Source of the DNA: Candidatus Heimdallarchaeum aukensis
GTDB lineage: Archaea; Asgardarchaeota; Heimdallarchaeia; Heimdallarchaeales; Heimdallarchaeaceae
DNA: 64,000 nucleotides
Reading direction: 5' to 3'
NCBI GenBank assembly: GCA_021513695.1
Contig: CP084166.1
Span: 832,001 to 896,000 of the forward strand
Below are positions 22,868 through 60,500 of the stretch, piece by piece. A program made the translations under genes and the position numbers. Under the pieces are notes generated by a model. The model had not been told where the DNA came from, made no database searches, and worked only from the letters and a program-made list of their open reading frames with translations. Positions within the stretch are counted from its first letter, which is position 1, and every line of letters starts with the position of its first letter.

Positions 22868-23027
22868 AAGTCTAACTTACTGTATTTCCAATCTTTCTTT
22901 CTACTTCCTTATTACAATTTTGGTTTCCTAAACAGTCTATTAACTTCCTAACTTTTGGAGAAAAGTTTTCAAACCAACCTATGTTTTTGACACCCAAAAG
23001 TGTAACTCACATCTAGAGAGTGAACAA
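22868..23027 (+). repeat. ~165-bp non-coding element, copy A (paralog of 60350-60500)
   Basis: Aligns over about 160 bp at roughly 78% identity with copy B. Shared blocks include tctaac(t/c)tactgta, tacaatttt, cagtctattaacttcctaacttt, aaccaacc, gtttttgaca, caaaagtgtaac and tagagagtgaa. Lies between two convergent GT4 genes. Confidence 0.7.
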
Positions 23028-23053
23028 TGGTAAGAGTTGAACACTCAAGTGTC

Positions 23054-24196
23054 TCAGATGCAATCTTTGTATATCCTTTCTACTTTTTTTACAACGTTAC
23101 TCCAATCTAAATTCTTTTGAATATATTTTTTTCCTCTTTCGACCAACTCTCTACTTTTTTCAGAATTTTCAAGAACATATTTGATCATTTTCTCTAGGCC
23201 ATTAATATCTCCAAATTTAGTAAAATATCCACAATTAGCTTTCCTGATTATTTCTCCGCAATCATCTGTAACAATGACAGGAGTACCACATAATATTGAT
23301 TCTAATACAGTTATAGCTACTCCACCCATGTATTGAACAGTATGAATATATAAATCTGCATCTACATAGGCTGCTTTTTTATCTATTTCATCTAAATAAC
23401 CAACAAATTTAACTTGTTTACTTACTTTTAATTCAACAGTTAATTTTTCAAGTTTTTCTCTTTCTCCAGAATCTGGTCCTGCAATAACAAAATAAATTTT
23501 TTCATCAGTCTTTTTAGTAAAATTTGCAAATGCTTTTATCATGAAATTTATTCCTTTCAACTTATGTATGCGACCTAAATACAAAATCATTTTTCCATTT
23601 ATATTATATTTTTTCTTAAACTCACCATGTTTTGGTAAGTCATAGATAATATCTAAATCCATTCCATTATATATTAAAGAAATTTTACTTTTTTGTATAT
23701 TCATTTTAATTGCATTTTCCACTTCCTCATTTGAAACAGCAATAAATTTAGACATATCTCGTAGTATTTTATATCCCCAAAAAATATCGAACAACTTCTT
23801 CAATTTTTTATTCCCAATTGTTTGGGGAAGTGAATTATGAGATTGTATTATATATGGAATTCTAAACTTCTTAGAATATCTAGATACTATTATGTTTTGA
23901 TATGACCTTAACTCATGCATATGCACAACATCAAAATCTTTCAAGTGTTTCTTAAGCCAACCTCTCATTTTTGGAGAATATATAAAAAGATTAATGTTAA
24001 AATAGTAATTAAATGATAAGATATTAATTCCTAATTTTTTAAGTGAATTTGCATATTCTTCATCAAAATCAAAAGTTGTGGTGAGCACAGTTACTTCATG
24101 ATTGTTCATTGCTAAATGTTTTGAAAGATTATAACATACATTAACATCTCCACCTTTTTTTGGAGTAAAGTAAGGAATTACTTGAAGAATTTTCAT
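23054..24196 (-). CDS. family-4 (GT-B) glycosyltransferase
   Basis: MKILQVIPYFTPKKGGD N-terminus. C-terminal E-x7-E-like region GGVAITVLESILCGTPVI. Confidence 0.8.
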   Translation of the reverse strand: MKILQVIPYFTPKKGGDVNVCYNLSKHLAMNNHEVTVLTTTFDFDEEYANSLKKLGINILSFNYYFNINLFIYSPKMRGWLKKHLKDFDVVHMHELRSYQNIIVSRYSKKFRIPYIIQSHNSLPQTIGNKKLKKLFDIFWGYKILRDMSKFIAVSNEEVENAIKMNIQKSKISLIYNGMDLDIIYDLPKHGEFKKKYNINGKMILYLGRIHKLKGINFMIKAFANFTKKTDEKIYFVIAGPDSGEREKLEKLTVELKVSKQVKFVGYLDEIDKKAAYVDADLYIHTVQYMGGVAITVLESILCGTPVIVTDDCGEIIRKANCGYFTKFGDINGLEKMIKYVLENSEKSRELVERGKKYIQKNLDWSNVVKKVERIYKDCI

Positions 24197-24484
24197 TTAT
24201 TATAACACACAATTTATCAACATAGTGACCCATATATATTTTTCGTTACAATTTTTTGTATTTCCTTTTTCTTTATTGTTTTCAATTTTAAAATTGATAT
24301 CTGATGTGTGTGAAATATTATTACTTCATTTTAGGTTTTCTAGTTATAAGATAGAGAAGAATGTATGATACTATAATTGCTTATACTGTAACCTACTGAA
24401 GTTTATCAAAAATAGCTATTAGCACAGCTTTTCAAGAACTTTAAAATTGCAAAACTGAATGAATTTGATATCCTCTGCTATCTA

Positions 24485-25864
24485 TTGGAACTAGTTCAGT
24501 ATTATTTAAATAAGGACTATTTTTCTTTTGTATTGATGTCTTTAGATTCAGTGTTCAGTAATATTAAGGATTCAGTATCTGGAAAAAAAGTATCATTTAA
24601 GAGGTACATTTTTAATTTTTTTAATTCAATTATGATAAAAAATGGTATATATATTTTTCTTAGTATTTTTATTTCTTCTCCTCTAGATTTTATTTTCTGG
24701 CTACTTGCAGCGAGATACTATCTTCCTGAAGTAGTTGGAACAAATATGTCTGTAATTGGATTGATTACATTAGTTTCTCTCCTCTCAAGATTTGGTTTAG
24801 AAAATGGTTTAAAAAGGTTCATCCCCAAAGAATCCGATAAAGGTGCTACTAACTTAATAAACTTTAGTATTATCGTTCTTACCTTCATATCTATCCCTTT
24901 TTTTATAATATCAATTCTTAGTATATTATTTCTTATACGCGATTACCCTCAGTGGATTTATTCAATTCAAACCATCAATTTTTTATTTCTCTTATTCATT
25001 TCAATAAATATTGGAAATTTGTTTGATTCTATCTTAATTAGCCGTAGTAGAAGTAAATATACAGTTTGGAGATCGATCCTTGTAGGAATTTCAAAGATTT
25101 CATTCTTACCTCTTTGTTTCAAACTAGGAAATATTGGTATTTTGGTATGTTATAGTGTACCTGTGTTAATTATTTCATTGTTAATGAACTTGATATTCAT
25201 AAAGAAAGTTATTCCAAATTACAAGTTTGTCATAACTTTTAAATTAAAAAATAATGAAATGTTGGTTTATTCTTTTAAACACTGGATTTATCAGATATCT
25301 GCATATCTTAATGACAAAATTCTACCGACAATTGTTCTTTTAAGAATATCTGAAGAATATGCAGCATATTTTTCAATTGGATATATGATTGTTCTTATTT
25401 CATATTTCTTGCCAAAAGCAATTAGCTCTTCATTTCTAGTGGAAGTAGTAAGGAATCCTTCTTCCATAAAACAAAATTTCTTTATGGCAACACTATTTAA
25501 TTGGATAATTTTAGGCTTTGTTCTTGTTCTTTTTAGTGTTTTTGGTAAACTCTTTCTTGGGTTTTTTGGGACAAATTACAAGATTGTTTACCTTTTTACA
25601 GTTATTGGTCTTTTATCATCATTTCCATATGCTTTTAATGAGATGTATTTTAACTATTGTAAAATTAAAAATAAACTGAAAATAGTTATATTCCTAAATA
25701 CACTATATACCATTTTTGTTTTAATAGGATCAGCAATATTATCTCCAATTTATGGATTAGAAGCAATAAGTCTCCTTATGTTAGTAGGTAATATAATGGT
25801 GTCTGTGTCTATATTCTTTTTAGTTAGAAAAGAAATATCTCTATTATTACTCAAAAATTCATAA
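24485..25864 (+). CDS. polysaccharide biosynthesis protein, Wzx-like flippase (MOP superfamily)
   Basis: About 12-14 TM helices, ~460 aa. Typical oligosaccharide-unit flippase architecture. Confidence 0.55.
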   Translation: MELVQYYLNKDYFSFVLMSLDSVFSNIKDSVSGKKVSFKRYIFNFFNSIMIKNGIYIFLSIFISSPLDFIFWLLAARYYLPEVVGTNMSVIGLITLVSLLSRFGLENGLKRFIPKESDKGATNLINFSIIVLTFISIPFFIISILSILFLIRDYPQWIYSIQTINFLFLLFISINIGNLFDSILISRSRSKYTVWRSILVGISKISFLPLCFKLGNIGILVCYSVPVLIISLLMNLIFIKKVIPNYKFVITFKLKNNEMLVYSFKHWIYQISAYLNDKILPTIVLLRISEEYAAYFSIGYMIVLISYFLPKAISSSFLVEVVRNPSSIKQNFFMATLFNWIILGFVLVLFSVFGKLFLGFFGTNYKIVYLFTVIGLLSSFPYAFNEMYFNYCKIKNKLKIVIFLNTLYTIFVLIGSAILSPIYGLEAISLLMLVGNIMVSVSIFFLVRKEISLLLLKNS

Positions 25865-25896
25865 AATTTATGTGAAAAAAATCTGTTACTATTAAT

Positions 25897-26778
25897 TCAA
25901 ACAAAGGGGAATTCATCAATTTTAATTTTGCTAACGTGTTTAATAATATACTCACGCTGTTCTTTAGTAAATATTTTTTCAAATTTATTTCGCTTTTTGT
26001 TTTCTATTTTCTCATTTACTGATTTCTTCCAAGGTTCATTAGTTAAAACAATATTTTTTACCTTTTCTTTGTAATCTGTAACCATTTTTTCAGAGAAACT
26101 AATACCAAGAAAGTTACATATGTCTCTTAAAGTCTTTGATGGTTGTGTCGTTAATCTGTCATAGCTTGTGAAAATGTGATTTTCATGATTAATATATTTC
26201 TTGCTAAATAAGATTGCTTTTTTCCACTTATTAATACACTGGTCAATAGTATATCCTCCTTCCCATATTTCAGGAAATTTTGATGAAACATCGTATAGAG
26301 ATGAAACAACATCACAACCATCTCTTATTAAATGAATAAACCTTGAATTTTTTACTAATTTATCAATGTAGTCAACATAAAAAAGATGATCTGGAGTTTT
26401 TTCAACCCAAGCTAATTTGTGATTATCAAGTGTATATTCATCCAGTAGTTTGACAAAATATTTTGTGTATTGCTTTATTGTATATAAATTTCCTAAAGTA
26501 TCCCTATTATTGTTCAATTTTAAACTATCTTGAAATTCTTGTAATCTCTTCTTTGCTCGTGGGTGACCTAATGTCACATTTAGAAAGAAATTGTTTCCTA
26601 ATATGTTTCTCACGAACTTTGGGGAGATAACATAAGGAATTTTAGGTAGTAAGTAAATAAAGAAATGTGATTCAGGAAATGAAATAATATCTTCATGTGC
26701 TGCTAATAATGACTGTAAGAGGGTTGTACCTGACCTAGGGCAGCCAACAAGGAATATCCTTGATTTAATTTCATTCAT
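25897..26778 (-). CDS. PAPS-dependent sulfotransferase (paralog 1)
   Basis: 5'-PSB loop GCPRSGTTLL and 3'-PB motif IRDGCDVVSS. Confidence 0.75.
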   Translation of the reverse strand: MNEIKSRIFLVGCPRSGTTLLQSLLAAHEDIISFPESHFFIYLLPKIPYVISPKFVRNILGNNFFLNVTLGHPRAKKRLQEFQDSLKLNNNRDTLGNLYTIKQYTKYFVKLLDEYTLDNHKLAWVEKTPDHLFYVDYIDKLVKNSRFIHLIRDGCDVVSSLYDVSSKFPEIWEGGYTIDQCINKWKKAILFSKKYINHENHIFTSYDRLTTQPSKTLRDICNFLGISFSEKMVTDYKEKVKNIVLTNEPWKKSVNEKIENKKRNKFEKIFTKEQREYIIKHVSKIKIDEFPFV

Positions 26779-28577: not shown

Positions 28578-28699
28578 ATTATCCTTTCCTATGTCTAAAC
28601 TTGATAAGAAAAAATCACTTATTAGTTTAACGTTTGAGATAAGAAATATGAAATTATTCATTATGTATTATGTAAATGAAAGTTCCGAAATTTATTCAT

Positions 28700-28755: not shown

Positions 28756-29454
28756 ATGAAAACACAAAAACTATCTGCTCTTTTTAAGAGATGCAGAGTC
28801 CCCAAAAAAATAATAATAAAAGCGATTTATGAATATATTGATTCAAAGAATGGGTTGAGGACAGTAGCATGGAAGAATGGTTTAACGCATCAAACATTAT
28901 GGTATTGGGTAAAGAAGTTCAGGCTCTTTAGGGAAAGTTTACATAGAGTTGTAGCAGAGAGAGGGGGAATACCAGAGATTATAGTAGTAGATGAAACAGA
29001 GATTAGGACCTCTCAAGGCTCAATATATCTGTGGTTCGCGTTAGATCCTTACAACAAGACTTTACTGGGTTTTAGTATTACTAAAGGACGGAGTAATCTT
29101 GAATGTTTACTAACTTTCCGTTATTGGTTCAAATGTTGGGGTTTTAAGCCCCGTATTGTCGTTACAGATGCAGGAGTATGGTATCCTGTCTTACTTCGTC
29201 TCGGTATCAAAATCTCCGTTATCAAAGGTGGTTTACGCTCCTATATTGAACGTTTTAATGCTACTCTTAAGAGTTATCGTTGGTTTCATTCTATTCTCCA
29301 CTGCACTTGTCCTATCCGTGCCGTCTATGGCTCTACTCATCTTTCTGGTTTTCTTACTCTCTTTATGCTCCATTATAATTTCGTTCGTCCTCATCAGAGC
29401 TTGGGACATCCTCCCCTTAGTTCCTTTTTACCTAGGAGGTGGTATAAAAACTAG
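28756..29454 (+). CDS. IS6-family DDE transposase
   Basis: VVDETEIRTSQGSIYLWFALDPYNKTLLGFSITKGRSN parallels the IS26 DETYVKVNGRWAYLYRAVD...DFYLS block. VVTDAGVWYP parallels TDKAPAY. ERFNATLK parallels the conserved ERxNxxLK. Confidence 0.65.
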   Translation: MKTQKLSALFKRCRVPKKIIIKAIYEYIDSKNGLRTVAWKNGLTHQTLWYWVKKFRLFRESLHRVVAERGGIPEIIVVDETEIRTSQGSIYLWFALDPYNKTLLGFSITKGRSNLECLLTFRYWFKCWGFKPRIVVTDAGVWYPVLLRLGIKISVIKGGLRSYIERFNATLKSYRWFHSILHCTCPIRAVYGSTHLSGFLTLFMLHYNFVRPHQSLGHPPLSSFLPRRWYKN

Positions 29455-42847: not shown

Positions 42848-43810
42848 TCATCTAAATTTGACACTATCTACATTAGGCATCGAATCTGCTGAATAAATAG
42901 AATCCAACTCAAACAGAGAAAGTATATCAATTGCCCGTTCTAGTTGCTCTTTTGTAATATTTTCCTTCCATTTATCGATAATACTTCCACCGGATATTAA
43001 TGCACTTTCCTTTCTTACTTCGGGAGAAGGTTTCTTTAGAACTCTATAAATAGATTGATCATAATTTTTTCCTAAAAATTGGAATAATTTATCTATTTCT
43101 TCTTCAGGTGAAACAGCATATTTTTCATAAAAAGTTACAAGTATTTCATCTTTTGAAAACTGTTTTAGTGGGACATAATTCTCAATACACCATAAAAAGA
43201 TATTCTTCTCAAAAGTAGTCTGAGCATGTAAAATATCTTTCTTAAAGGGATTCAAGAAATCTTCCATTAGCTCTTCCTGAGAAAGTAAAACATCCAGATG
43301 GTCTTCCCAATTTAATTTTATTCTAGAGTTAGCCACTGCTCCGGGATGTCTTAGAAGTAAAATAATTTTTATTTCAGGAAACTGGGTTTTGATCCATTTT
43401 AGCATTAAATTAGCTCGGATATCTTTAACAAGCCTTTTTTTGCACAGAAACTTTTTATTAAATCTGTCTACCCATTTGTTTCTTATTTTTCCTGAAAGAA
43501 TTTTTCTTGCTGGTTCTAAATACTTTTCATCATTGTTCTCAGGTCTAAGATATTGCCTATACTTGAAATCTTTACAGACATCAACAAAGTATGAGTGAAA
43601 TGGCTCAAAAATGTACCTATAACTGTTATCATAATTAATGATATTTGAAACCCATGTTGTACCACTTCGTCCTGTTCCAGCTAGAAAAATGGTATTCTCA
43701 TAATTGCTATCTAAATTAATATATAATCTACTATGAATCTTGATTTTGATTGAATCAAGTAATGTTCCTTCATCGATTTTTCTTTTTATTTTATTTACTA
43801 TATTACTCAT
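42848..43810 (-). CDS. PAPS-dependent sulfotransferase (paralog 2)
   Basis: 5'-PSB GTGRSGTTWV and 3'-PB LRHPGAVANS. The start is trimmed to ATG 43810 to remove the overlap with the upstream gene. The listed ORF extends to 43852. Confidence 0.7.
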   Translation of the reverse strand: MSNIVNKIKRKIDEGTLLDSIKIKIHSRLYINLDSNYENTIFLAGTGRSGTTWVSNIINYDNSYRYIFEPFHSYFVDVCKDFKYRQYLRPENNDEKYLEPARKILSGKIRNKWVDRFNKKFLCKKRLVKDIRANLMLKWIKTQFPEIKIILLLRHPGAVANSRIKLNWEDHLDVLLSQEELMEDFLNPFKKDILHAQTTFEKNIFLWCIENYVPLKQFSKDEILVTFYEKYAVSPEEEIDKLFQFLGKNYDQSIYRVLKKPSPEVRKESALISGGSIIDKWKENITKEQLERAIDILSLFELDSIYSADSMPNVDSVKFR

Positions 43811-43827
43811 ACAATCACTTTTTAGAA

Positions 43828-44751
43828 TTAGATAAAACCCCATTTTTTCCAATGCTCATTTAAAACTTTGATTACATTATCTGGACTGTGATATCTTAAT
43901 GCAATATCTTTTTTACCTTTTTTAGTTTCACTCTTTAGGATTTGCAGAATAGAATCTTTTAAATTATTAGGGTTTAAGAAACCAATTACCTCTTTCATCT
44001 CTTCATAATCGATATATTGCTCTGAATAGTAAGTTCCTACAGAAACGTCACAAAAAAGAGCTTCAATTGAAATCACATTATATGTCAAACCTGTGCTAGG
44101 GTTTGCATGATCAATAATCAAATCACAGAAATTTATAGTATCACATATTTTTTCTCTGGGTATTGGTTTGTTGATGAAGTGAATATTGAAAGTTTTTTCA
44201 TTATTTATTTCTTCAATTGCTTTACTAATTAGATCAGAACCTTTTATTTTTGGTGAATGAGCAAAATGACCTATAACATAATCAAATCCATTCTCATCCT
44301 TGAATTGCTCTTTTTTTTCTTTTACTTCCTCTTTCGAATAAAATTCGTCAGGATTTACACAGCGAGGAAGAAAAATAGAATTAGGACTATAATTTATTAA
44401 CTCTTTAAGTGAGACAAATGAAGGTTCTTGAGGTTTAACAGTTCCAAGTCTTAAATCAGAACCATGATAATGAAAGCAAGTATTTCTTGCTCTTACTAAT
44501 TGTGGATAAGTACCATTGACCACCTGAATATCAAATTTTCTCAACAACCAACCAAAAGCCATCCAAAACCCTGTTCTCAGATAATTTTTCCACAAAGGCC
44601 CTTGAACACTTCCTAATTTAAAATACTGTTCAGGAAGATTGGCATATTTATTGCTCTGAAGAAAATAAGTTACTTCGTGACCTTGTCTTTCTAGCTCTCT
44701 TCCAATAAGAAAATGTTGACTAGCATAGTCACCAATAATAGCAATTCTCAT
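43828..44751 (-). CDS. GT-B-like protein of an uncharacterised subfamily (HYHGSDLR motif); paralog of 50457-51401
   Basis: N-terminal Rossmann-like MRIAIIGDYASQHFLIGRELERQGHEV and C-terminal S.E..F...GT-like region. Shares the HYHGSD(L/I)R block with 50457-51401. Confidence 0.5.
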   Translation of the reverse strand: MRIAIIGDYASQHFLIGRELERQGHEVTYFLQSNKYANLPEQYFKLGSVQGPLWKNYLRTGFWMAFGWLLRKFDIQVVNGTYPQLVRARNTCFHYHGSDLRLGTVKPQEPSFVSLKELINYSPNSIFLPRCVNPDEFYSKEEVKEKKEQFKDENGFDYVIGHFAHSPKIKGSDLISKAIEEINNEKTFNIHFINKPIPREKICDTINFCDLIIDHANPSTGLTYNVISIEALFCDVSVGTYYSEQYIDYEEMKEVIGFLNPNNLKDSILQILKSETKKGKKDIALRYHSPDNVIKVLNEHWKKWGFI

Positions 44752-44864: not shown

Positions 44865-45998
44865 CTATATCATTATATTTGTCTCTATTTCTAGTTCGTG
44901 TTCTTCGTATCGTTTTATAATCTCATTTACAATTTTTGTACTGCTTTTTCCGTCTCCATAAGGATTTTCCCAATTTATGTTTTTATAATGATCCAAATTG
45001 TCTTTAATTTGTTTAATCGCTGATTTTATTCTTTCTTTTTCTGCTCCTACTAATTGATTAGCACCAATTTCAAGTGTTTCAATCCATTCAGTATTGTCTC
45101 TTAAAGTTATACAAGGAACATTTAGAGTTAAAGCTTCTTTCTGAATTCCTCCGCTGTCAGTAAGAATAGACATAGAATTTACTTCAAGAGAAATAAAATC
45201 AAGATACCCAGTAGGATCAATTGTGATAATATTCTCGTTCTCAATCAAATCTCCTAAATTGTAATCTTTAATACGATTTTTTGTTCGTGGATGAACAGGA
45301 TAAACAATAGTTTCCTCAACTTCATTTAAAGTCTCCAAAATTGTCTTTAATCTTCCTTTGTTGTCAACATTCTCTTTTCGATGGAGAGTTAACAAAAAAT
45401 ACTCTTTTGATTTTAAGCCCAACTTTTTTAGAATTGATGATTGTTTTTTTGCTTTTTTTACATTCCTTAAGATTGCATCAACCATTGTGTCTCCTGTTTC
45501 AAAAATCCATCTCTTATTTATTCCCTCTTTCAATAAATTCTCAGAAGCAGTCATAGATGTTGTAATTAACATTCTACTGATGTGGTCAGTTAACTTTCTG
45601 TTTATCTCTTCAGGCATTCTGAAATCATAGCTCCTTAAACCTGATTCAAGATGAATAACAGGATATTGCAACTTACTTGCTGCTAGAGCTCCAGCAAGAG
45701 TTGAATCAGTATCTCCAGGAACTAAAACAGCATCAGGATCCTCTTCTTTTAATTTTTCTTCTATTTTAATCATCATATTTCCGACTAGCTGAGCATGAGT
45801 TTGAGAATGAATATTTAGATTTACATCAGGAGGAGGAAGAGACAATTCTTGAAAAAATATAGAAGACATATTTTCATCAAAATGTTGGCCTGTGTGTAAA
45901 TGATAGAAATCCATTTTTGGCTCTTCTAACATATCTTGTATTATTGGTGATAGTTTGATAAATTGGGGTCTAGCTCCCGATATGATAAATACTTTCAT
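44865..45998 (-). CDS. wecB: UDP-N-acetylglucosamine 2-epimerase (non-hydrolysing)
   Basis: MKVFIISGARPQFIKLSPI, HTGQHFD and HLESGLRSYD motifs. The start is at ATG 45998. The listed ORF extends 14 codons further, to 46040. Confidence 0.8.
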   Translation of the reverse strand: MKVFIISGARPQFIKLSPIIQDMLEEPKMDFYHLHTGQHFDENMSSIFFQELSLPPPDVNLNIHSQTHAQLVGNMMIKIEEKLKEEDPDAVLVPGDTDSTLAGALAASKLQYPVIHLESGLRSYDFRMPEEINRKLTDHISRMLITTSMTASENLLKEGINKRWIFETGDTMVDAILRNVKKAKKQSSILKKLGLKSKEYFLLTLHRKENVDNKGRLKTILETLNEVEETIVYPVHPRTKNRIKDYNLGDLIENENIITIDPTGYLDFISLEVNSMSILTDSGGIQKEALTLNVPCITLRDNTEWIETLEIGANQLVGAEKERIKSAIKQIKDNLDHYKNINWENPYGDGKSSTKIVNEIIKRYEEHELEIETNIMI

Positions 45999-46023
45999 TT
46001 TAACACCTTGTTTAATATACTTT

Positions 46024-47400
46024 TTATTCTCCAATTCCAACTATGACTCTTTTATCATTTTCTCTCTCATTTATATGACCAAAAATATGGCGAGTATCAA
46101 TAATAGCATAAGGATTATTTGCTTGTTCGTCAAAGAATGAGATATCTAACTCTTTGTAGTGGCTATGGTCAGTAAGAATTACTATACAGTCGCTGTTATG
46201 AATCGCTTTTTTCAAATCCTCTTCAAATTTGATATCAATTATTTCTCTTAGTTCTTCTTCTTTATAGAGTGGATCATGTAAAACAATTTTTGCTTCGTAT
46301 TCTTTTAGTCCTTTTATGACATCAAATGTTGGAGAATATCTATATTCTTTAACATTTCCTCTATAAGCTAACCCTAAAAGGGTAATTTTTGAGCCTTTAA
46401 GGTTTTTATTTACTTTATTCAGCGCAATAATTGTACGATTGACTACATGATAAGGCATTGAGAGATTGATTTCTCTCCCTTTTTTTGTTAATGCTGCACT
46501 TATTCCAAATTGGTCTGCAATATTAATTAAAAATTGTGGATAAACAGGAATACAATGTCCTCCAACTCCAGCACCAGGTCTATGAATATGGGAGAAAGGT
46601 TCACTGTTTGCAGCTTTTATCACTTCATGGACATTAACACCTATTTTTTCTGAAATTTTAGCAAATTCATTAGCCAATGCTATGTTTACATCTCGATAAA
46701 TCCCCTTAAATATCTTAACAGCTTCTGCAGCTGTCGATGAACTCATCTGAATAACACCTTTTTTAGCTATAGTCTCATAAAGCAAAGCGATTCGTTCAGT
46801 ACTTCTAGGATCTACACCACCCACAATTTTTGGATAATTATCTCTGATATCTTCTATTGCTCTACCACTATAAGTGCGTTCAGGAGCAAAACCTAACCCA
46901 AAATCTTTTCCTGCTTTAAGACTAGATATTTGTTCCAACTGCTTCTTAACGATTTGCTCAGTAGTTAAAGGAGGAACAGTACTTTCAATAACTATTAACT
47001 TCCCAGGTTTCATATAAGCTCCAATCGAATTTATTAGCTTAATTACAGGTTGAAGTTCTGGGTTTCTATATTTATCAATTAAAGTAGGGATTATGATTAT
47101 TATAACATCGGATTCATCTACAGCTTTCTCTAATGAGAGCGTGCACTCAAACTTTTTCTCTTTCAAACCTTTTCTAATTCCTTCAATAACTCCAGGTTCA
47201 CCTATTATAGGTGGATTACCTTCATTGATCTTTTGAACAGTTTCAGGGTTAACATCTACTCCAATAACTCTATACCCTGCTTCAAGAAAGACCACATCAA
47301 TTGGTAGACCCATTTTTCCTTGTCCAATAACCGCTATAGTCAAAGACCTATTTTCTAATAACTTAATGGCTTCATCTTTTGAAATTATAAAATATCCCAT
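46024..47400 (-). CDS. wecC: UDP-N-acetyl-D-mannosamine / UDP-glucose dehydrogenase family (nucleotide-sugar 6-dehydrogenase)
   Basis: N-terminal GxGxxG (IAVIGQGKMGL), central catalytic-Cys region (GVGGHCIP), and C-terminal UDP-binding domain. It is adjacent to wecB. Confidence 0.8.
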   Translation of the reverse strand: MGYFIISKDEAIKLLENRSLTIAVIGQGKMGLPIDVVFLEAGYRVIGVDVNPETVQKINEGNPPIIGEPGVIEGIRKGLKEKKFECTLSLEKAVDESDVIIIIIPTLIDKYRNPELQPVIKLINSIGAYMKPGKLIVIESTVPPLTTEQIVKKQLEQISSLKAGKDFGLGFAPERTYSGRAIEDIRDNYPKIVGGVDPRSTERIALLYETIAKKGVIQMSSSTAAEAVKIFKGIYRDVNIALANEFAKISEKIGVNVHEVIKAANSEPFSHIHRPGAGVGGHCIPVYPQFLINIADQFGISAALTKKGREINLSMPYHVVNRTIIALNKVNKNLKGSKITLLGLAYRGNVKEYRYSPTFDVIKGLKEYEAKIVLHDPLYKEEELREIIDIKFEEDLKKAIHNSDCIVILTDHSHYKELDISFFDEQANNPYAIIDTRHIFGHINERENDKRVIVGIGE

Positions 47401-49156: not shown

Positions 49157-50155
49157 TCACATAAATACATTATAATCAAGAGACCTATTAAAAATATAGG
49201 TAAACAATTTCTCCTTTTTCACTGGTAAAAATCTTGATTTTCGAGGTTGTGAGAGAATTGGATAGTCATAATCATATAATATTTTTCTGAAATATTTAGT
49301 TATATAATATTTCTCAAGAGTATTGATTTCTTTCTTCCAAACTTCTAGATTATCTGCAGAGATACCTTGAAACTGTTTGTTGAGACTTGAATTTCCCAAC
49401 CACAACTTCCCTTTGATAGTTGGTTTAAGAAGAATAGGATCATATTTTACTCCAATGAAATCAGCTAATTCTTTCATAGATTTTTCAGGATTAGTCAAAA
49501 TATCTTCATATTTAATAACATGATAAGAATCAGGAAACAGCTCTAAATTACGATACATGTGGTAGAAAGAATTTTTCAGAGAAAGTAAAGGAACACTAAT
49601 TTTGGGATATTTTCCTTTATTCACAGCCTTTTGTAAATAACGTCTGTAACTAACCAGATTAGAATATGGATTGCGTAACACACGTATAAATTTGGCATCT
49701 GGAAAGAGTTTTTTCAATAAAGGTACAAATTCATCATGTTCTACAGATTTTTCTACAAAACGTTTCGTTTCTACGTAGTCTTCTTCATAAAAGGAAGCAT
49801 AAATTGCTTGGAAGTAAAGTTCAACAAGATCTTTAAAATCATCAACTTCTTTCTCAATTTTTTGATTGAATATAGAAAGGTTGAACATTCCTATTCTACT
49901 TGAAGAATCATGACTAAAATCTTGCTTTACAGTATTAATTTTTTTAATATGTTTCTTAAAATTGTCTTTTATTTCCTTAAATGAAAGATCTTGAGGGTAA
50001 GTCTTTCTCCCTCGATAATCAACCCATCGTCCAGATAATTGGAAAATGTGTGTTTCAAAAGGAATACTAAAAAGTTCAGGATGATTATCTAGTAATCTTA
50101 ATAGTAAAGTTGTACCACTCTTATGTGGACCTACAATGAAAATGGGATTATTCAT
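49157..50155 (-). CDS. PAPS-dependent sulfotransferase (paralog 3)
   Basis: 5'-PSB GPHKSGTTLL and 3'-PB LRNPYSNLVS. Confidence 0.75.
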   Translation of the reverse strand: MNNPIFIVGPHKSGTTLLLRLLDNHPELFSIPFETHIFQLSGRWVDYRGRKTYPQDLSFKEIKDNFKKHIKKINTVKQDFSHDSSSRIGMFNLSIFNQKIEKEVDDFKDLVELYFQAIYASFYEEDYVETKRFVEKSVEHDEFVPLLKKLFPDAKFIRVLRNPYSNLVSYRRYLQKAVNKGKYPKISVPLLSLKNSFYHMYRNLELFPDSYHVIKYEDILTNPEKSMKELADFIGVKYDPILLKPTIKGKLWLGNSSLNKQFQGISADNLEVWKKEINTLEKYYITKYFRKILYDYDYPILSQPRKSRFLPVKKEKLFTYIFNRSLDYNVFM

Positions 50156-51536: not shown

Positions 51537-53279
51537 TTAAGCAATTTTTTTTCTTGTTAGTATGACTAAAGTTACTAGTCCAATAATAGTAATAAAAAAT
51601 GGGAGAGAGATTGTTTTTGTAGAAGGGTGCTCACTTGGATCCAATGGATTATAACCTTTTTGAACTTCCTCACCATCCATCCAACCATCTGAATCAGTAT
51701 CTGAATTTAAAGGGTCAGTAAGGTAAATATTAACTTCTTCTCCGTCACTTAGTCCATCTGAATCAGTGTCTGAATTTAAAGGGTCAGTAAGGTAAATATT
51801 AACTTCTTCTCTGTCACTTAGTCCATCTGAATCAGTGTCATTGTTATTTGTTAGAGTTCCTATATATTGTTCATAAGCATTTGATAAACCATCATAGTCT
51901 GAATCAACATCATACAAGTTCTTAGTCCTTATGAACTTAGAAGATCCACTCATTCCTTCCCAATAAACATGTAGAGAACTTGAAGGAAAAGAAAAACAGT
52001 AGATATATTCAGTAGTATCACCTATAATAAGCTCCAAATGACCATCAGAATCAATATCACCAATAGAGGGAGAAGAATAAGCAAAAGGACCAAGAGTATA
52101 ACTCCACAATAAAGATCCATTATTACTCAAACAATATAAATTACTATCATGAGACCCAAAAATAATCTCAAAATATCCGTCTGCGTTAATATCTGCAACA
52201 GAAGGAGAAGAACGAACATTATCTCCTGTTTTGTAAGTCCATTTTATAGAACCATCATTGTTGAAACAGTACACATAATCAGAATCACTCCCCACAATAA
52301 TCTCAAAATAACCATCAGAATCTATATCTACGACAGCAGGAGAATCCCACACTCTATCTTCAGTATTGTATCGCCATTTTAAAGTACCATTATAATTTAA
52401 ACAATAGATGTAACCGTCATGGCTACCAATAATGATTTCTGATCTCCCGTCTGAATTAATATCTGCGATAGCTGGAGAAGAATAAATATCATTAGCAGTA
52501 CCGTATCGCCATTTTAAAGTACCATCATTGTTGAAACAATAAATGTAATTATCATAACTTCCGACAACAATTTCCAAGTCCCCATCAGCATCAATATCAC
52601 CGACTGAAGGTGAAGAAAGAACATTAAGACCAGTACCGTATCGCCATTTTAAAGTACCATCATTGTTTAAACAGTAGATATAATAGTCATCGCTACCAAT
52701 AATGATTTCTAAATTTCCGTCTCCGTCAATATCAAAAACAACTGGAGCAGTACGAACTTTTTCTCCTGCTTTATAAGTCCATTTTACAGTACCATCATTA
52801 TTCAAGCAGTATATGTAATTGTCATCACTTCCTACAACGATCTCCAAATTTCCGTCTTTATCAATATCTACAACTACAGGAGAAGAACGAGTGGATCCAC
52901 CTGTTTTGTAAGTCCATTTTACAGAACCATCATTGTTGAAACAATAGATGTAACTATCCAAACTCCCTTCAATGATCTCTACATTTCCATCGGCATCAAT
53001 ATCAACTATAGCAGGAGAAGAATGGATATCTCCCCCAGTTCTATAACTCCACAATAACTCAGCTTCAATACTCTTAAATGTTGAACCTTTGGGTGTTTCA
53101 AGATTAGTACTTGCATAAGAAAGAGAGTCAGTAGATAAAGAAGTTTCACCATTATAGTTTAAGGAAGTATTAAGTCTTCGATAATCAGTTTCATAATTTG
53201 ATGTTAACAAAGCAGGTGTTAACAAAATAATTAATAAAGCAACCGTGATAGTTAAACTTCTTATTCTTGAAATTTGCAT
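51537..53279 (-). CDS. surface-anchored beta-propeller protein: signal peptide, ~8 FG-GAP-like blades, three TSP3-like Ca-binding repeats, C-terminal TM
   Basis: Signal MQISRIRSLTITVALLIILLTPALL, with the start set at ATG 53279. Eight repeats of VDID.DGN.EII.GS.D.YIYC.NNDG..KW.Y.TG (DxDxDG Ca-binding loops). SDTDSDGLSDxEEV repeats. C-terminal FFITIIGLVTLVILTRKK anchor. Confidence 0.65.
   Translation of the reverse strand: MQISRIRSLTITVALLIILLTPALLTSNYETDYRRLNTSLNYNGETSLSTDSLSYASTNLETPKGSTFKSIEAELLWSYRTGGDIHSSPAIVDIDADGNVEIIEGSLDSYIYCFNNDGSVKWTYKTGGSTRSSPVVVDIDKDGNLEIVVGSDDNYIYCLNNDGTVKWTYKAGEKVRTAPVVFDIDGDGNLEIIIGSDDYYIYCLNNDGTLKWRYGTGLNVLSSPSVGDIDADGDLEIVVGSYDNYIYCFNNDGTLKWRYGTANDIYSSPAIADINSDGRSEIIIGSHDGYIYCLNYNGTLKWRYNTEDRVWDSPAVVDIDSDGYFEIIVGSDSDYVYCFNNDGSIKWTYKTGDNVRSSPSVADINADGYFEIIFGSHDSNLYCLSNNGSLLWSYTLGPFAYSSPSIGDIDSDGHLELIIGDTTEYIYCFSFPSSSLHVYWEGMSGSSKFIRTKNLYDVDSDYDGLSNAYEQYIGTLTNNNDTDSDGLSDREEVNIYLTDPLNSDTDSDGLSDGEEVNIYLTDPLNSDTDSDGWMDGEEVQKGYNPLDPSEHPSTKTISLPFFITIIGLVTLVILTRKKIA
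51686..51840. repeat. 69-bp tandem repeat (2.2 copies, ~97% identical) inside the propeller gene, encoding 23-aa DTDSDGLSD(R/G)EEVNIYLTDPLNS units
   Basis: catctgaatcagt(a/g)tctgaatttaaagggtcagtaaggtaaatattaacttcttctc(c/t)gtcacttagtc repeats at 51686, 51755 and 51824. Confidence 0.8.
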
Positions 53280-54126
53280 TATTTTTTCTCTAGTTTGAAA
53301 TATTTTTTGATTTTTAGCTTGCTTTTTTTTCATTATTAATTCATTCCTTTTTATTTTATGATTTTTCTGTTGCGATTTACTTGAATATTTAGAAACACTT
53401 CTTCTAAATCGTAATTTAGTAGCTGATTTTGCTCTCTGTCTAAATATCATCCATGAATTATCTTTTTGTTATCTTTTCCTACTCTATCAGTGGAATGGTA
53501 CAAACGATGAAATTTAAAGGTTTCAAAGTACTAACATCATCTAGGAATTATGAGACACTATTGAAGTATTTAACTCTTCGCTCAACGAGCAGCTATAATA
53601 TTCTGATTACTAGTGAATAGGTTGATTTAAGCATCTAGTTAAGGCACTTTTAGGAATGGTTTTTTTACATCTTTTCTCATTTCCAGTACCTCTTTTTGAA
53701 CATAGTTCGTTTCTTTTTTAGAGTAGATCACATAGTTATTACCAGAATCATATATAAACTAGACATTTTTTGAAGGAAGAAAATAACTGCAAAAAAGAAA
53801 CTCAAAGTTACATTCAGCCATTTTTTTAAATAAAATCACATTTCCCCAATATTCTAAAATCATTTTTACAACATTTTCAGGACTATGATACTTCATACAA
53901 TCACTTTAAAAAGATTTGAACTTGAATTTTTACAAAACTTAAAAAAATAGATTCATAACCGAATTTCAAGAGCTTCTGCAAAGATGCACTCTCATTAGCT
54001 ACATTTATTGTAAAGATGAAAGTAACTTAAAAACATTAACTATCATTTCTTTTTATTCCTACTATATGAATAAAACAATCAATTGTTAATAAGTAATATT
54101 TTTATTTTCTATCCTAATTTTAAATT

Positions 54127-56004
54127 GTGAGATATAAAGATCCATTTCTTATTCCAATAATGCAAATTAGTAAAAAAAAGAAATTAAGGAATGAGGAAAA
54201 GATACAATTAATAGAAAATATTTTTCAGAAAATAATAAAATTTACAGGAGAAAATAGAGAAATACGAAAAAAAATAGAAGAAATAAGAAAAATCATTGCT
54301 AAGAGCGGAATAGAAATTAATAAAGAAATCAACAATTTGAACAATTTAAACGATTTAAATAATTTAAATAATTTAAACAAGAAACTCAACTTTAGTTTAG
54401 ATGAAAGAAAATCAAATATTTTTATCACTCCTTATCATCTTTCACTAATCACAAGTATTTGCTCTACAGACCCTAAAAGCAATGGAGAGTTTAACACACC
54501 GTTCTATATAGCAGAATACTTGGCAGAAAGAGCAATAAAATACTATTTAACAGAAAACAAAGCAGAAGAAAAATCAGATAACAAAACAGAACAAAGTAAA
54601 CTACTTAGATTAAAGTTTGCAGATATAGCTAGTGGAACAGGAAACTTGATACTCGCTCTCTTATATAAATTAAAAGAAAGAATAAAAAAGGAAGAAGAGA
54701 TAGAAAATGAAGAATTAATAGAGTTTATCAGTAACAACATTTATTGTTACGATAATAACCAATTAGCACTAAAAATAAATGAGCTTAGACTATTCTTATT
54801 CATCAAATTTACTATGGAAGAAGCAGAATTAAGAAAAGTAAATTTTAAAACAATAAAAACAAATACTTTGGATAAAGAAAAAATAAAGAAAAACAATTAT
54901 TTTGATATTATTTTAATAAATCCACCTTTCAAAACTTATGGATTAAGAAATGGGCAAAAGTATAGCCAAGAATTAAAGAACTATTTAAGAAAAGAATATA
55001 AGACCGCAGAGTATAAACTTCCACTTTATCCACTATTCATGGAAAGAGCAATAGAATTGTTAAGAAAAAGAGGAGTTCTTGGAGTAGTTAGCCCAGATAG
55101 TTTTTTGTTAGGTAAATATTACTCAAAAATAAGAAGTTATATTCTCAACAATACTACAATTAAAGAAATAACACTATTAGACTATGAACCCTTTGAAAAA
55201 GTAACACTAGGAAGAACAGCGCTAAGTTTCTATATGAAAAAAAATGAAAAAGAAAAAAAACAGAATCAAATAATCACGAAAAAAATAAGCAATTACCAAA
55301 CTTTCACTCACAAAAATGAGATTGATAAGAAGTACTTGAACAATGAAAAAAAATTCCTAAAAAATGATCTAAATAGATTTTTTCTGTTCTTTAATGAGAA
55401 AGAAGAAAAGATAGTAGAGAAATGGATTGAAAAAGCAGATTGTAAACTAGAAGATCTGGTAACAATCCACACAGGAATAAGAAGTAAAATAGGCCAAAAA
55501 AAGATCATTAGCTTAAAAAAACATGATGAAAATTGGAAAAAAGGAATATTATCAGGAAAACAAATAAAACCTTTTTATTTAGAATACAAAGGACATTGGA
55601 TAAATGTTGATCCAACTATATTATGGGCAGGAGGTTATAATGAGGAGATAATAGAAAATCCTAAATTGTTAATAAGACAAACAGGAGATAAAATAATTGC
55701 ATGTGTAGATACTAATGGCTATTACCACTTGAATAATATTCACTCACTTTCTCCAAAAGACGAAACAGTTGACCTTTACTCCTTATCAGTTATCTTAAAT
55801 TCAAAAGAATTTAATCAAGTCTATAGAATTTTAAGTATGGAAAAAAAAAGAACATTTGCTCAAATAGACATAGATTTTTTCCTCAAAATGCCGATAATAT
55901 ACTTTTCAAAAGAAAAAAAAACACTTTATGAATTTTATCTAAAAGAAAGCACCAAACAGAAAAAAAGAATAGAAATAGAATCATATTTATTAGATAATAT
56001 TTAA
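54127..56004 (+). CDS. N6-adenine DNA methyltransferase, gamma class (Eco57I/TaqI-like), solitary
   Basis: Motif X-like EFNTPFYIAEYLAERA. Motif I FADIASGTGNLILALL. Motif IV IILINPPF. Long C-terminal target-recognition region. Contains an N-rich low-complexity insert (NLNNLNDLNNLNNLN). Confidence 0.75.
   Translation: MRYKDPFLIPIMQISKKKKLRNEEKIQLIENIFQKIIKFTGENREIRKKIEEIRKIIAKSGIEINKEINNLNNLNDLNNLNNLNKKLNFSLDERKSNIFITPYHLSLITSICSTDPKSNGEFNTPFYIAEYLAERAIKYYLTENKAEEKSDNKTEQSKLLRLKFADIASGTGNLILALLYKLKERIKKEEEIENEELIEFISNNIYCYDNNQLALKINELRLFLFIKFTMEEAELRKVNFKTIKTNTLDKEKIKKNNYFDIILINPPFKTYGLRNGQKYSQELKNYLRKEYKTAEYKLPLYPLFMERAIELLRKRGVLGVVSPDSFLLGKYYSKIRSYILNNTTIKEITLLDYEPFEKVTLGRTALSFYMKKNEKEKKQNQIITKKISNYQTFTHKNEIDKKYLNNEKKFLKNDLNRFFLFFNEKEEKIVEKWIEKADCKLEDLVTIHTGIRSKIGQKKIISLKKHDENWKKGILSGKQIKPFYLEYKGHWINVDPTILWAGGYNEEIIENPKLLIRQTGDKIIACVDTNGYYHLNNIHSLSPKDETVDLYSLSVILNSKEFNQVYRILSMEKKRTFAQIDIDFFLKMPIIYFSKEKKTLYEFYLKESTKQKKRIEIESYLLDNI
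54334..54381. repeat. 9-bp microsatellite (aatttaaay) x5 inside the methyltransferase gene
   Basis: aatttgaacaatttaaacgatttaaataatttaaataatttaaacaag. In frame, it encodes (N/D)LN repeats. Confidence 0.7.
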
Positions 56005-56327
56005 TAAATAATTGAATTAAATTAAATTATAATAATATTTTAACTTTGAATTTATTAAAACTAAAGCCTATTACTCTTTATAATATCAAGGTTTGGTATA
56101 AAAAACTGAACTTAGTACATTAATATTCTTTTCTTACAGTATTTCAAGAATCAAAAATAATTATTATCACTTTAAAAGAAGTGATATTCAAGTAAGTATA
56201 ATTACCAATAAATATTTCCTAAAAATAAATAAAGAAAAAAAGTAAGAGGAGAAAGTGAAGAAAGTGTTTAAGAACAAAGTCTAGAACTAAATAAGCATGA
56301 ATAGTAAAAAATGATTAAAAGTTAACA

Positions 56328-57395
56328 TTATATTTTTTCGTTGCTAAAATCTTTATTTTTTTTCAAGTATTCTTTAGTTTCGATATTCTTTAACCACCAC
56401 TCATTTTCTAAATACCACTCTATTGTTAGTTGAATACCTTCTTCAAAATCGATTGTTGGAAACCAGTTCAGTTCATTTTTTATCTTTGAAATATCGATCG
56501 CATATCTTCTATCATGCCCTAATCTGTCTTTAACGTGTTTAATTAAAGTTTCATTAATTTTAGTGTCTTTTGTTTTCTCATATAAATAAGAAATTATTTT
56601 TTTTACAACATATATATTCTTTCTCTCATTTTGAGCTCCAATATTATATATCTCACCTATCCTTCCTTTTTCAAAAACCAAGTCGATTGCTCTACAATGA
56701 TCAGTGACAAATATCCAATCTCTTACTTGATTTCCATCTCCATATATAGGTAGATTCTTATGGTTCAATGCATTTTGTATCATTAATGGAATTAATTTTT
56801 CGGGGAATTGGAAGGGTCCGTAGTTATTAGAACATCTAGTAATATTTACTGGCATCCTATATGTATCAAAGTACGCTTTTACTATCAAATCTGCAGATGC
56901 CTTACTTGCAGAATAAGGACTATGCGGATCAAGAGGAGTTTTTTCTGTAAAAGCACCTGTAGGACCTAGAGAACCATATACTTCATCTGTTGATATTTGC
57001 AAGAATTTCTTATTTGCAATCCATTCTTCATTGTGATACCAATTTTTTTTACATATTTCAAGAAGTGAATATGTGCCTAAAATATTTGTTTGAAGAAATA
57101 TTTGTGGATTAGCAATAGATCTATCAACATGGGATTCTGCAGCGAAATTAATAACTCCATCTATATCTTTATAGGTTTCAAATATTTTCCTTAATAACTC
57201 AAAATTATTAATATCTCCTTTAATAAAAATAAACCTTGACTTTTGATCTTCAGTTAAATTTTTCCAATTTTCAACGTTACCAGCATAAGTAAGTTTGTCG
57301 ATACCAATTATTTCTCTATCAGGATATCTATCAAGATAATAATAAAGAAAATTACTTCCAATAAATCCTGCAACGCCAGTTACTAATATTTTCAT
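56328..57395 (-). CDS. rfbB: dTDP-glucose 4,6-dehydratase
   Basis: MKILVTGVAGFIGSNF, the YSASKASAD catalytic motif, and length 355 aa. Confidence 0.85.
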   Translation of the reverse strand: MKILVTGVAGFIGSNFLYYYLDRYPDREIIGIDKLTYAGNVENWKNLTEDQKSRFIFIKGDINNFELLRKIFETYKDIDGVINFAAESHVDRSIANPQIFLQTNILGTYSLLEICKKNWYHNEEWIANKKFLQISTDEVYGSLGPTGAFTEKTPLDPHSPYSASKASADLIVKAYFDTYRMPVNITRCSNNYGPFQFPEKLIPLMIQNALNHKNLPIYGDGNQVRDWIFVTDHCRAIDLVFEKGRIGEIYNIGAQNERKNIYVVKKIISYLYEKTKDTKINETLIKHVKDRLGHDRRYAIDISKIKNELNWFPTIDFEEGIQLTIEWYLENEWWLKNIETKEYLKKNKDFSNEKI

Positions 57396-57418
57396 TCCTA
57401 ATACTTCCTCTATGTTTT

Positions 57419-58267: not shown

Positions 58268-58414
58268 ATAATCACCATTAAATTTTCATAAATATATCTT
58301 TTATGTGATTCAAATTTGAAATACTATAAAGCAACTCCTACGAACTAATTTCTTAATTAATGCATATATTATTCTCTTTCTTACATACCTTTTTAGCTTA
58401 ACTTCTTAATTAAA

Positions 58415-58996
58415 TCACTTTTCGTATTTAAAAGGTAATTCAATATCTTTCAAAAATGGTAATTTAGAATCTTTCTCTGAAATAATTAATCTTGAATCTT
58501 CAATCTTGTCTAAAGGCCATTTAATGTTTATATCTGGATCATTCCACCTGATTCCTCTATCATATGCTGAATAATAATAATCAGTTGTTTTGTAAACAAA
58601 TTCAGTCTCTTCAAGGGCAAGAAATCCATGAGCAAAACCTTTAGGAATATAAAACATGCGTTTGTTTTTTTCAGAAAGTTCTACACCATAATACTGACCA
58701 AAACTGGGAGAACCTACTCTTATATCAACAGCAACATCAAACACTCTTCCTTTGATTACACGTACTAATTTTCCTTGAGAGTGCTTAGATTGAAAATGTA
58801 ATCCTCGTAGAACTCCTTTTGAAGATTTAGAGTGGTTATCTTGTACAAAATCCACGTTTAATCCAATTTTGTTAAATTCCTTTTTATTATAAGTTTCCAT
58901 AAAAAATCCTCTTTCATCGTAAAAAATTACTGGTTCAATAATAAATGCCCCTTCCAATATTGTTTCAATTTTATTAAATTTTAACATATAAATCAC
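58415..58996 (-). CDS. rfbC: dTDP-4-dehydrorhamnose 3,5-epimerase
   Basis: RmlC cupin with the ...DERGFF.E...LRGLHFQ... signature. 193 aa. Confidence 0.85.
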   Translation of the reverse strand: MIYMLKFNKIETILEGAFIIEPVIFYDERGFFMETYNKKEFNKIGLNVDFVQDNHSKSSKGVLRGLHFQSKHSQGKLVRVIKGRVFDVAVDIRVGSPSFGQYYGVELSEKNKRMFYIPKGFAHGFLALEETEFVYKTTDYYYSAYDRGIRWNDPDINIKWPLDKIEDSRLIISEKDSKLPFLKDIELPFKYEK

Positions 58997-59143
58997 CGTA
59001 AATCTTTACTATAATTTTTGGATTAGTTTATCTCATAATCATGTTTATTTTTTGTCACTGTTGTACTATTGAAATGAAATTAATTTTATTCTATTAAATC
59101 TATTGAATTACATTATACTTTGTAATATGTAGATGAAAAATTT

Positions 59144-60007
59144 TTAAATAAGACTTAATAAATACCTTCCATAATCAGAATTTGAGTGCTCTTTTGCTAA
59201 ATTTTTAAGTTGATCGGTGTCAATATATCCAAGTCTGAATGCAATTTCTTCTAAACAAGCAATATAATATCCTTGCCTTTTTTGAATAGCTGCAACAAAA
59301 TTACTAGCTTCTATTAAACCATCAAATGTTCCAGTATCAAACCAAGCTAATCCACGTCCTAATAATTTGACTTTCAACTTTCCTCTTTTTAAATATTCAA
59401 TATTAAGATCAGTAATTTCTAGCTCTCCTCTTGGAGATGGTTTAAGATTTTCTGCATATTTAATTACATTATTATCGTAGAAATATAAACCAGGTATAGC
59501 ATAATTTGATTTTGGAAAAGCTGGTTTCTCTTCTATGGAGATAACATCCATAGTTTCTTCATTGAATTCTACAACTCCAAAAGCGGTGGGATTATTTACA
59601 TAGTAACCAAAGATTAAGGCTCCTTCCTTTAAAGTAGTTGCTTTTCTTAAAATTGAAGAAAAACCTTGACCATAAAAGATATTATCACCTAAAATTAGTG
59701 CAACATTATCAGAACCAATAAATTCTTTACCAACAATGAAAGCATCAGCTAACCCTCTTGGTTTTTCTTGAATTTTATATGAAAACTGAACACCAAGTTG
59801 AGAACCATCTTTTAATAAATTCTTGTAGTCTATAATATCTCTTGCTGTTGAGATAATTAAAATATCTTTTATCCCAGCAAGAAGAAGTGAAGAAAGTGAG
59901 TAATAAATCATAGGTTTATCATAAACTGGTAGAATTTGTTTTGAAATTGCTTTTGTTATGGGATATAATCTTGTTCCTGTTCCTCCAGCCAATACAATTC
60001 CTTTCAT
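59144..60007 (-). CDS. rfbA: glucose-1-phosphate thymidylyltransferase
   Basis: [36 protein letters not shown] is the canonical RmlA N-terminus. 287 aa. Confidence 0.85.
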
Positions 60008-60349
60008 TTTCTATTATAAGAAGAAAAACTCTATTCTATAAAATTTTCGTAATCATAAATCATTGTGAAATCATGAATTAATATTCTAAGGAAATACACT
60101 TCACATTTTTTTATTTTGTATTTATAAACCTAGTAAACATATTATCTATTAAGAGAAAAAAATGGAATACTAAAACATTATTAGAAACTATAATCTATTA
60201 ATGTTAGATTTGCTCGCTAACTAAAAAAATCATTGCTTATTCCTAAACAATAAAAAGAACAACTAGAAAAATAAGTATCAAAGCATTATGTTTTAAAATT
60301 TTATGTATAATACTATTTCACGTATCATGATAAGCATAAACTTGGTCTA

Positions 60350-60500
60350 ACCTACTGTAACTCCGATCTTTTTTCAACCTCTCTTACTACAATTTTAGCC
60401 TTGCTCACCAGTCTATTAACTTCCTAACTTTGGAAAATAATTTATGAACCAACCCTAAGTTTTTGACATTCAAAAGTGTAACCCCCTATAGAGAGTGAAT
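60350..60500 (+). repeat. ~165-bp non-coding element, copy B (paralog of 22868-23027)
   Basis: See copy A. Same orientation. It lies about 340 bp upstream of the rfbA start, in the operon's leader/promoter region. Confidence 0.7.

Follow-up and report, generated by a model that had tools for sequence, protein, structure and literature searches.

What are the two co-oriented, apparently non-coding repeats of about 165 bp that bracket a 37.5-kb block of a glycan locus in Candidatus Heimdallarchaeum aukensis? Wu et al. 2022 (PMC8813620) described this Asgard archaeon, whose circular genome spans 3.08 Mb. We addressed the question in a 64,000-nt stretch of that genome (assembly GCA_021513695.1, contig CP084166.1, positions 832,001 to 896,000 of the forward strand), hereafter the window, to which all coordinates refer unless another locus is named. 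A first-pass annotation of the window had placed copy A at 22868-23027 and copy B at 60350-60500, and had suggested that they could represent a small-RNA gene family, a conserved regulatory element, or relic recombination boundaries of a replaceable glycosylation island. Our comparisons point, with high confidence, to a different identity: both repeats are very probably pseudogenised, 5'-truncated remnants of a 1,015-bp insertion sequence (IS) of the IS481 family.

Identity of the two repeats

The pair itself was readily recovered. Comparison by blastn aligned 22863-23024 (copy A) with 60338-60499 (copy B), both in the plus orientation, over 165 nt at 80.6% identity (E = 1.5e-33), which bears out the co-oriented pair of the first-pass annotation, and the same pair emerged from a MAFFT alignment and from a repeat search. 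No third copy was found within the 64-kb window with blastn, with a model of copies A and B (the A+B model) or with an IS profile. This profile, an nhmmer model built from three full-length IS copies in relatives of H. aukensis, matched the window at 22474-23026, equivalent to IS positions 444-1011 (E = 1.1e-81, 272 bits), and at 60327-60499, equivalent to IS positions 832-1009 (E = 3.4e-27), and gave no further match in the window. The first match delimits relic A (22474-23026, +), a decayed, 5'-truncated IS481-family element of 553 bp that retains transposase codons ~98-279 together with the right end, and that occupies nearly the entire intergenic gap at 22441-23053. Relic B (60327-60501, +; IS positions 832-1011) is a shorter 5'-truncated copy of the same IS and retains the last ~55 transposase codons and the right end. 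The position originally given for copy A was accurate but its extent was not, given that copy A is merely the 3' third of the longer relic. The 165-bp unit is the overlap between a 553-bp relic and a 175-bp relic. It looks sharply bounded because both relics run up to the same IS end on the 3' side and, on the 5' side, the overlap stops where copy B is truncated.

Homology to the IS extends along the relics in both DNA and protein comparisons. Relic A aligned to the IS of the sister species Ca. H. endolithica at 68% identity over 566 nt (E = 2.8e-43, blastn), and relic B at 75% identity over 145 nt (E = 2e-19, blastn). When an intact transposase (P0256) was compared to the window with tblastn, its amino acids (aa) 98-279 aligned to 22483-23013 with 36% identity and in-frame stops (E = 8e-19), and its last ~50 residues aligned to 60338-60483 across two frames, KLGLTYCNSDL and SYYNFSLAHQSINFLT...KSVT (E = 1.7e-5); the translation of relic A reads YKSFERS...ILTDN...KQSINFLTFGEKFSNQPMFLTPKSVTHI*. 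The earlier statement that neither copy has a conserved open reading frame (ORF) is literally true, in that stops and frameshifts break both copies, but it is misleading, because both are recognisably derived from coding sequence.

The long conserved blocks that the first-pass annotation had singled out are codons of the transposase C-terminus (YYNF.RPHQS.N.LT...PKSVT): the block CAGTCTATTAACTTCCTAACTTT encodes QSINFLT, and the block CAAAAGTGTAAC...TAGAGAGTGAA runs from PKSVT through the stop codon into the right terminal repeat. In an alignment of six copies, similarity among all of them ends at one base, the right terminus of the IS (...GAGT(G/A)AA(C/T)A). This alignment and a comparison of the flanks place the right inverted repeat of relic A at 23002-23026 (+), ending ...CTAGAGAGTGAACA, and that of relic B at 60477-60501 (+), ending ...ATAGAGAGTGAATA, the terminus of relic B being that of relic A, of two copies in a third Heimdallarchaeum strain (JGI contig L105) and of the H. 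endolithica IS. The reverse complement of the relic A repeat, TGTTCACTC..., matches the left end of the IS, TGT(T/A)TACTC.... No codon periodicity is seen in the mismatches that separate copies A and B, and each indel is 1 nt long, as would be predicted for sequence that decayed neutrally once inactivated.

The mapping of the blocks bears directly on the leading ideas of the first-pass annotation. Intergenic copies with sharp edges and long identical blocks might be expected of a small-RNA gene family or a structured cis-regulatory RNA; every conserved block, however, maps either to transposase codons or to the IS terminal repeat, and this explanation of the blocks applies equally to a conserved regulatory element. 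Rfam gave no match, either for the whole window at the gathering threshold or, beyond chance-level hits, for the copy A region at E ≤ 10. Minimum free energy z-scores for copies A and B on both strands ranged from -0.5 to +1.6, single-sequence folds of three copies on both strands gave no structure signal, and RNAalifold on the three copies (188 columns) yielded a consensus of only -3.8 / -7.2 kcal/mol with no covariation, the feature that had been proposed as a check. Promoter and terminator scans returned counts no better than those of shuffled sequence, and the window contains no tRNAs, leaving no tRNA/att signature. We consider the RNA interpretation almost certainly wrong, and neither the small-RNA family nor the regulatory element withstood these comparisons. 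The first-pass annotation had itself allowed that the similarity might trace to a shared pseudogene remnant of duplicated flanking genes; this is essentially what we found, the gene being an IS481-family transposase and not a duplicated flanking gene.

Several other candidates were tried and rejected. Minus-strand small ORFs of 41 aa and 22 aa are not conserved in a third copy and have no Pfam match. An attC-like or MITE-like unit (MITE, miniature inverted-repeat transposable element) was discarded given that no inverted repeat, internal or terminal, is common to the copies, and a MITE in the strict sense given that the right IS end alone is present and the lengths are unequal (553 vs. 175 bp). 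The template/variable repeat pair of a diversity-generating retroelement does not fit mismatches that fall on all bases (copy A at mismatches: T13 A10 C10 G4). The notion of an element that always faces the stop of a convergent gene fails in L105, where the copies sit upstream of co-oriented genes.

Parent insertion sequence and further copies

Contig L105 carries two full-length decayed copies of the IS, at 745-1753 and 8486-9496. The A+B model matches the 3' ends of both (E = 7.5e-30 and 5e-26), and the similarity of copy A to the L105 copies reaches at least 150 nt further 5' than that of copy B. The L105 copies have broken reading frames and are 81-85% identical in DNA sequence to a copy in H. 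endolithica (locus L107). ORF fragments in the plus sense of the element carry the rve_3 hallmark of DDE transposases, YYNFNRPHQSF, read ...LSYYNFNRPHQSFNFLTTGQKFMNHPYVSLVPKSVTQI, and match the intergenic regions of copy A and copy B with E = 2e-11 and 1e-6, respectively (tblastn). The transposase reconstructed from L105 contains the Pfam domains rve (7e-17), rve_3, HTH_32/28/29 and, weakly, LZ_Tnp_IS481, and its best NCBIfam model is IS481 (1.7e-59), followed by IS3 (1e-26). An intact transposase of 310 aa (P0259) likewise matches IS481 over model positions 5-284 of 284 (5e-66, 223.1 bits), with IS3 next at 89 bits. On these profile scores, IS481 is the best match for the parent element, and the family assignment is marginal.

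The L107 copy in H. endolithica is near-intact (2437-3451, 1,015 bp; the locus of transposase P0257) and is flanked by a perfect 16-bp direct target duplication, CCTATAAACTTTCAAC. Its inverted ends, TGTATACTC.../TGTTTACTC..., are imperfect and start with TGT; the ends TGTATACTCCACTCA... and, reverse-complemented, TGTTTACTCAATAGA... agree at 9 of their first 11 bases. The terminal inverted repeats of the first L105 copy are identical at 18 of 25 positions, and a comparison of flanks showed no target duplication at the two older L105 copies. Clustering at 90% identity groups 48 sequences under P0257 as representative and 21 under P0256. The parent element thus combines the properties of an IS, namely a length of ~1 kb with TGT termini, a target duplication, and multiple copies, two of which lie within 10 kb of L105. 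Wu et al. 2022 (PMC8813620) described abundant repeats associated with 11 transposase/integrase families, which reach up to 27 copies per genome; their catalogue took only repeats of at least 95% identity, so that a pair such as A and B, at 80%, would be missing from it.

The search of related genomes that the first-pass annotation had suggested did turn up more copies, in H. endolithica (L107 and a diverged copy, E) and in L105. Copy E lies in the H. endolithica flank orthologous to that of the window, at L005 6225-6370, equivalent to L012 8402-8546. Its match to the A+B model is weak (9.6 bits), a score reached by 0 of 3,000 dinucleotide shuffles; in the reciprocal search with copy E, copies A and B were the top two matches in the window, and with a five-copy model copy E reached E = 3.7e-4. 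Other routes were less productive. An exact 20-mer had 0 matches in genome, viral and metagenome collections, and two additional viral pattern scans gave 0 matches and 5 chance matches. Anchoring on RfbA retrieved orthologues 94-96% identical in H. endolithica and on two JGI contigs, one of which is L105; the NTP-transferase protein anchor retrieved H. endolithica only. None of 80 metagenome loci retrieved by GT2 alignment contained a copy of the element, and the idea that the element is a companion of the GT2 gene was dropped on finding it absent downstream of GT2 orthologues in five other loci. A blastx search of the intergenic regions against the local ORFs of the window gave no match because the sole rve ORF in the window belongs to another IS family.

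The locus of copy E also contains a relic of the opposite end of the IS: at L012 974-1094 (+), in H. endolithica CP084167.1, we found an IS481 left-end relic (IS positions 8-130, E = 2.8e-4). This relic and the right-end relic E (8402-8546, +) share the same orientation and are 7.3 kb apart; between them lie three large genes (706, 648 and 727 aa) for which no Pfam domain is recorded. This layout resembles an IS split by, or bracketing, inserted genes.

Origin of the relics

In both relics we observed homology to the IS at the DNA and protein levels, a common terminus and truncations; the homology is colinear up to the IS terminus and is accompanied by stops and frameshifts. Our preferred history would comprise two insertions of one IS, which encodes a single ~310-aa DDE/rve transposase and is multi-copy in Heimdallarchaeum. 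Deletion would later have removed the 5' part of each insertion, ~443 bp from copy A and ~831 bp from copy B, and the remainder would have decayed through point mutations and 1-nt indels, so that only codons for the transposase C-terminus and the right terminal repeat are left.

Over the last 176 nt, identity is 77.7% between A and B and 69-75% between either of these and the L105 and L107 copies, which are 85-90% identical among themselves; copy E is 53-57% identical to all. These values suggest that A and B come from an older sub-lineage or from older insertions, and that E is older still. We infer that the two relics stem from separate insertions of one older IS sub-lineage, not from duplication of a relic, and that they are now functionless. 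Several points weigh against this account. The loss of function is itself deduced. The closer mutual similarity of A and B also fits duplication of an already truncated relic, and target duplications cannot be checked for A and B, whose left ends are gone. The score of P0259, 223.1 bits, falls 0.9 bit under the NCBI cut-off of 224 for IS481.

The 37.5-kb block and the variability of the glycan island

The gene context of the repeats agrees with the first-pass annotation. Copy A lies between convergent genes, both of which encode GT4 glycosyltransferases (21187-22440, +, on the left and 23054-24196, -, on the right), and copy B lies ~340 nt upstream of rfbA (59144-60007, -); beyond copy B, the stop codon of a sulfotransferase gene (60774-61658, -) is ~274 nt away. 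Domain and ORF positions confirm that the intervening block holds an IS, an orphan methyltransferase and three of the four sulfotransferases: the sulfotransferases are at 25897-26778, 42848-43852 and 49157-50155, the Eco57I-type methylase is at 54127-56004 (+), and an ORF for a weak rve-type transposase is at 28756-29454 (+).

Related strains differ strongly in this locus. H. endolithica and strain L094 share the flank with the window up to the NTP-transferase gene (93-94% aa identity). Contig L007 (JGI 3300033141), compared to the window at ~8.2-13 kb, has a cation-efflux gene 98% identical to that of H. aukensis followed by wholly different glycan genes, which indicates that the glycan island is replaced at the strain level. 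The epimerase beside the cation-efflux gene of L007 is only 46% identical. From these comparisons, the left edge of variability lies at ~10.8-13.1 kb in the window and not at copy A.

Strain-level replacement with a 98% identical flank is also what could be expected if the co-oriented IS copies were arms of a composite transposon, or substrates for homologous recombination, that delivered, duplicated or rearranged the 37.5-kb block, a proposal that is compatible with the identification of the repeats as IS relics and adds a historical claim to it. IS relics are typical scars of rearrangement; A and B have the same orientation and are each other's closest relatives (77.7% vs. 69-75%), and IS copies mark junctions in the glycan locus, with a different IS upstream of the rfbA promoter region in each of three genomes. 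Yet the region that varies against H. endolithica, L094 and L007 begins ~10 kb before copy A, and three relatives without the bracketing have the rml operon found inside the block, conserved at 94-96%. Copy A is without the outer (left) end that a composite transposon needs, no target duplication is findable, and 78% identity implies old events. No strain with an empty site (~22.4 kb joined to ~60.5 kb) was found among the relatives compared, and those available differ from the window well outside the 37.5-kb block. We consider it unlikely that the IS copies served as such arms or substrates, and doubt in particular that the pair was left behind when an IS481 composite transposon, or IS-mediated recombination, moved this glycosyltransferase/sulfotransferase/rml block into or within the surface-glycan island; if it was, IS elements would serve as a direct vehicle for diversifying glycan loci in the archaeal lineage closest to eukaryotes. 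Of the options in the first-pass annotation, relic recombination boundaries came nearest, in that the repeats are IS relics and copy B lies at an IS-rich point upstream of the rfbA promoter, but the part of that claim that implies movement of the block as a unit found no support in the comparison of strains.

The junction upstream of rfbA can be followed across genomes. The rml operon forms a conserved module, at 94-96% aa identity, and ~55 nt upstream of rfbA are conserved in three Heimdallarchaeum genomes (window 60008-60065, -; L105 1754-1810; L102 9940-10000). This conserved stretch includes a TATA-like box, TTTATAG, ~35 nt before the ATG. Upstream of it, similarity breaks off abruptly. 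What follows is relic B in H. aukensis, a full-length decayed IS481 copy oriented like relic B in L105, and, in H. endolithica, an rve-type IS of another kind (232 aa). The presence of a different IS in each genome indicates that IS elements mark module junctions here.

Such positions raise the possibility that the relics have been co-opted, with an outward promoter in the IS right end, or another cis-element, acting on neighbouring glycan genes. Elements of the IS481 family can drive adjacent genes, and in L105 the IS right ends precede co-oriented genes for a membrane protein and the flippase by 57 nt and 167 nt. In the window, by contrast, each right end faces the 3' end of a convergent gene (distances of 27 nt and 274 nt), and the H. 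endolithica relic likewise points at the 3' end of a convergent gene; the rfbA TATA box is ~300 nt from relic B and on the opposite strand, and TATA-like strings are frequent in DNA of 30% G+C. Co-option is, in our judgement, very improbable, and functionless IS remnants remain the preferred explanation.

The 232-aa ORF at 28756-29454 (+) shows weak rve, rve_3 and HTH_Tnp_1 matches, and its best NCBIfam model is IS6 (1e-12), far below the cut-off. Judged by these domains, it is a putative second type of IS, unrelated to the IS481 element. H. endolithica has a copy with only 3 residue differences (L102 9241-9939), placed 62 nt upstream of rfbA, and a 64%-identical fragment adjoins the GT2 orthologue in strain L094; this second IS apparently moves together with conserved glycan modules or inserts next to them. 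In two related strains, glycan-locus stretches of 1.5-2.6 kb that contain short ORFs only (L094 3872-5358 and L106 3889-6479) may be decayed genes or remnants of mobile elements; the IS481 profile gave no match in them.

Other features of the locus deserve brief mention. A single gene at 51537-53450 (-) contains seven to eight tandem 135-bp repeats that are 60-76% identical (51994-53048), and two 69-bp repeats (51663-51800); in the 637-aa product, a protein of secreted type, they correspond to FG-GAP/beta-propeller blades and TSP3-type calcium-binding repeats. The Eco57I-type N6-adenine methylase at 54127-56004 has a TaqI-like specificity domain and is an isolated gene flanked by the rml operon and the FG-GAP gene, with no obvious nuclease partner nearby; three relatives have a GT2 gene and a flippase in its position. 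Two pairs of long-range inverted repeats were rejected as non-coding elements, being conserved coding segments of paralogues: 15419-15485 / 45587-45653 fall in paralogous UDP-GlcNAc 2-epimerases (15065-16384, +, and 44865-46040, -), and 16519-16566 / 57349-57396 in the Rossmann N-termini of NAD-dependent epimerases/dehydratases (16520-17440, +, and 56328-57395, -).

Discussion

The identification of the repeats removes a candidate new RNA or regulatory element, which matters little alone. It also corrects the annotation, in that two long intergenic gaps in the glycan locus of H. aukensis would be IS481-family pseudogenes. The Heimdallarchaeum glycan island appears as a strain-variable region with relics of at least two IS families, several of which are at synteny breakpoints, e.g., upstream of the rfbA promoter; this pattern has long been known from bacterial O-antigen and capsule loci and agrees with the abundance of IS elements described previously (PMC8813620). 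A practical lesson is that sharply bounded, AT-rich non-coding repeats should be compared to the IS ends of the genome before RNA hypotheses are entertained. The kind of element is well known; this archaeal IS and its relics are uncatalogued members.

Compared to the IS481 family (NCBIfam NF033577; Pfam rve + rve_3 + HTH), which occurs in bacteria and archaea, the parent element is alike in its size of ~1 kb, its single transposase ORF of ~310 aa, the architecture of the protein (an N-terminal HTH, a DDE/rve core with WQIDV...TDNG...GKVER and a C-terminal YN..RPH.SL motif), its TGT-starting inverted repeats, its direct target duplication and its multiple copies. Members of the family are about 0.95-1.3 kb long, have termini starting with 5'-TGT and produce target duplications of 4-15 bp. 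The 16-bp target duplication of the L107 copy is one bp above this range, and the relics in the window differ from members of the family in being non-functional fragments and not elements.

The relics also invite comparison to solo terminal repeats and MITE-like IS derivatives, which they resemble as short non-coding sequences that end at an IS terminus and recur in intergenic DNA. They differ in having no second inverted end, target duplication or uniform 5' edge; as far as their structure indicates, they are deletion products, not a mobilisable miniature element.

The closest parallel at the level of the locus comes from bacteria. IS remnants are found at module junctions of O-antigen and capsule loci, including H-repeat/IS fragments in the rfb loci of E. 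coli and Salmonella and IS relics in pneumococcal cps. The host here differs, being an Asgard archaeon, and the relics of H. aukensis show no direct tie to a specific gene-exchange event. In both cases, truncated, decayed IS fragments occupy long intergenic gaps of a hypervariable, low-G+C glycan cluster, adjacent to a conserved rml operon.

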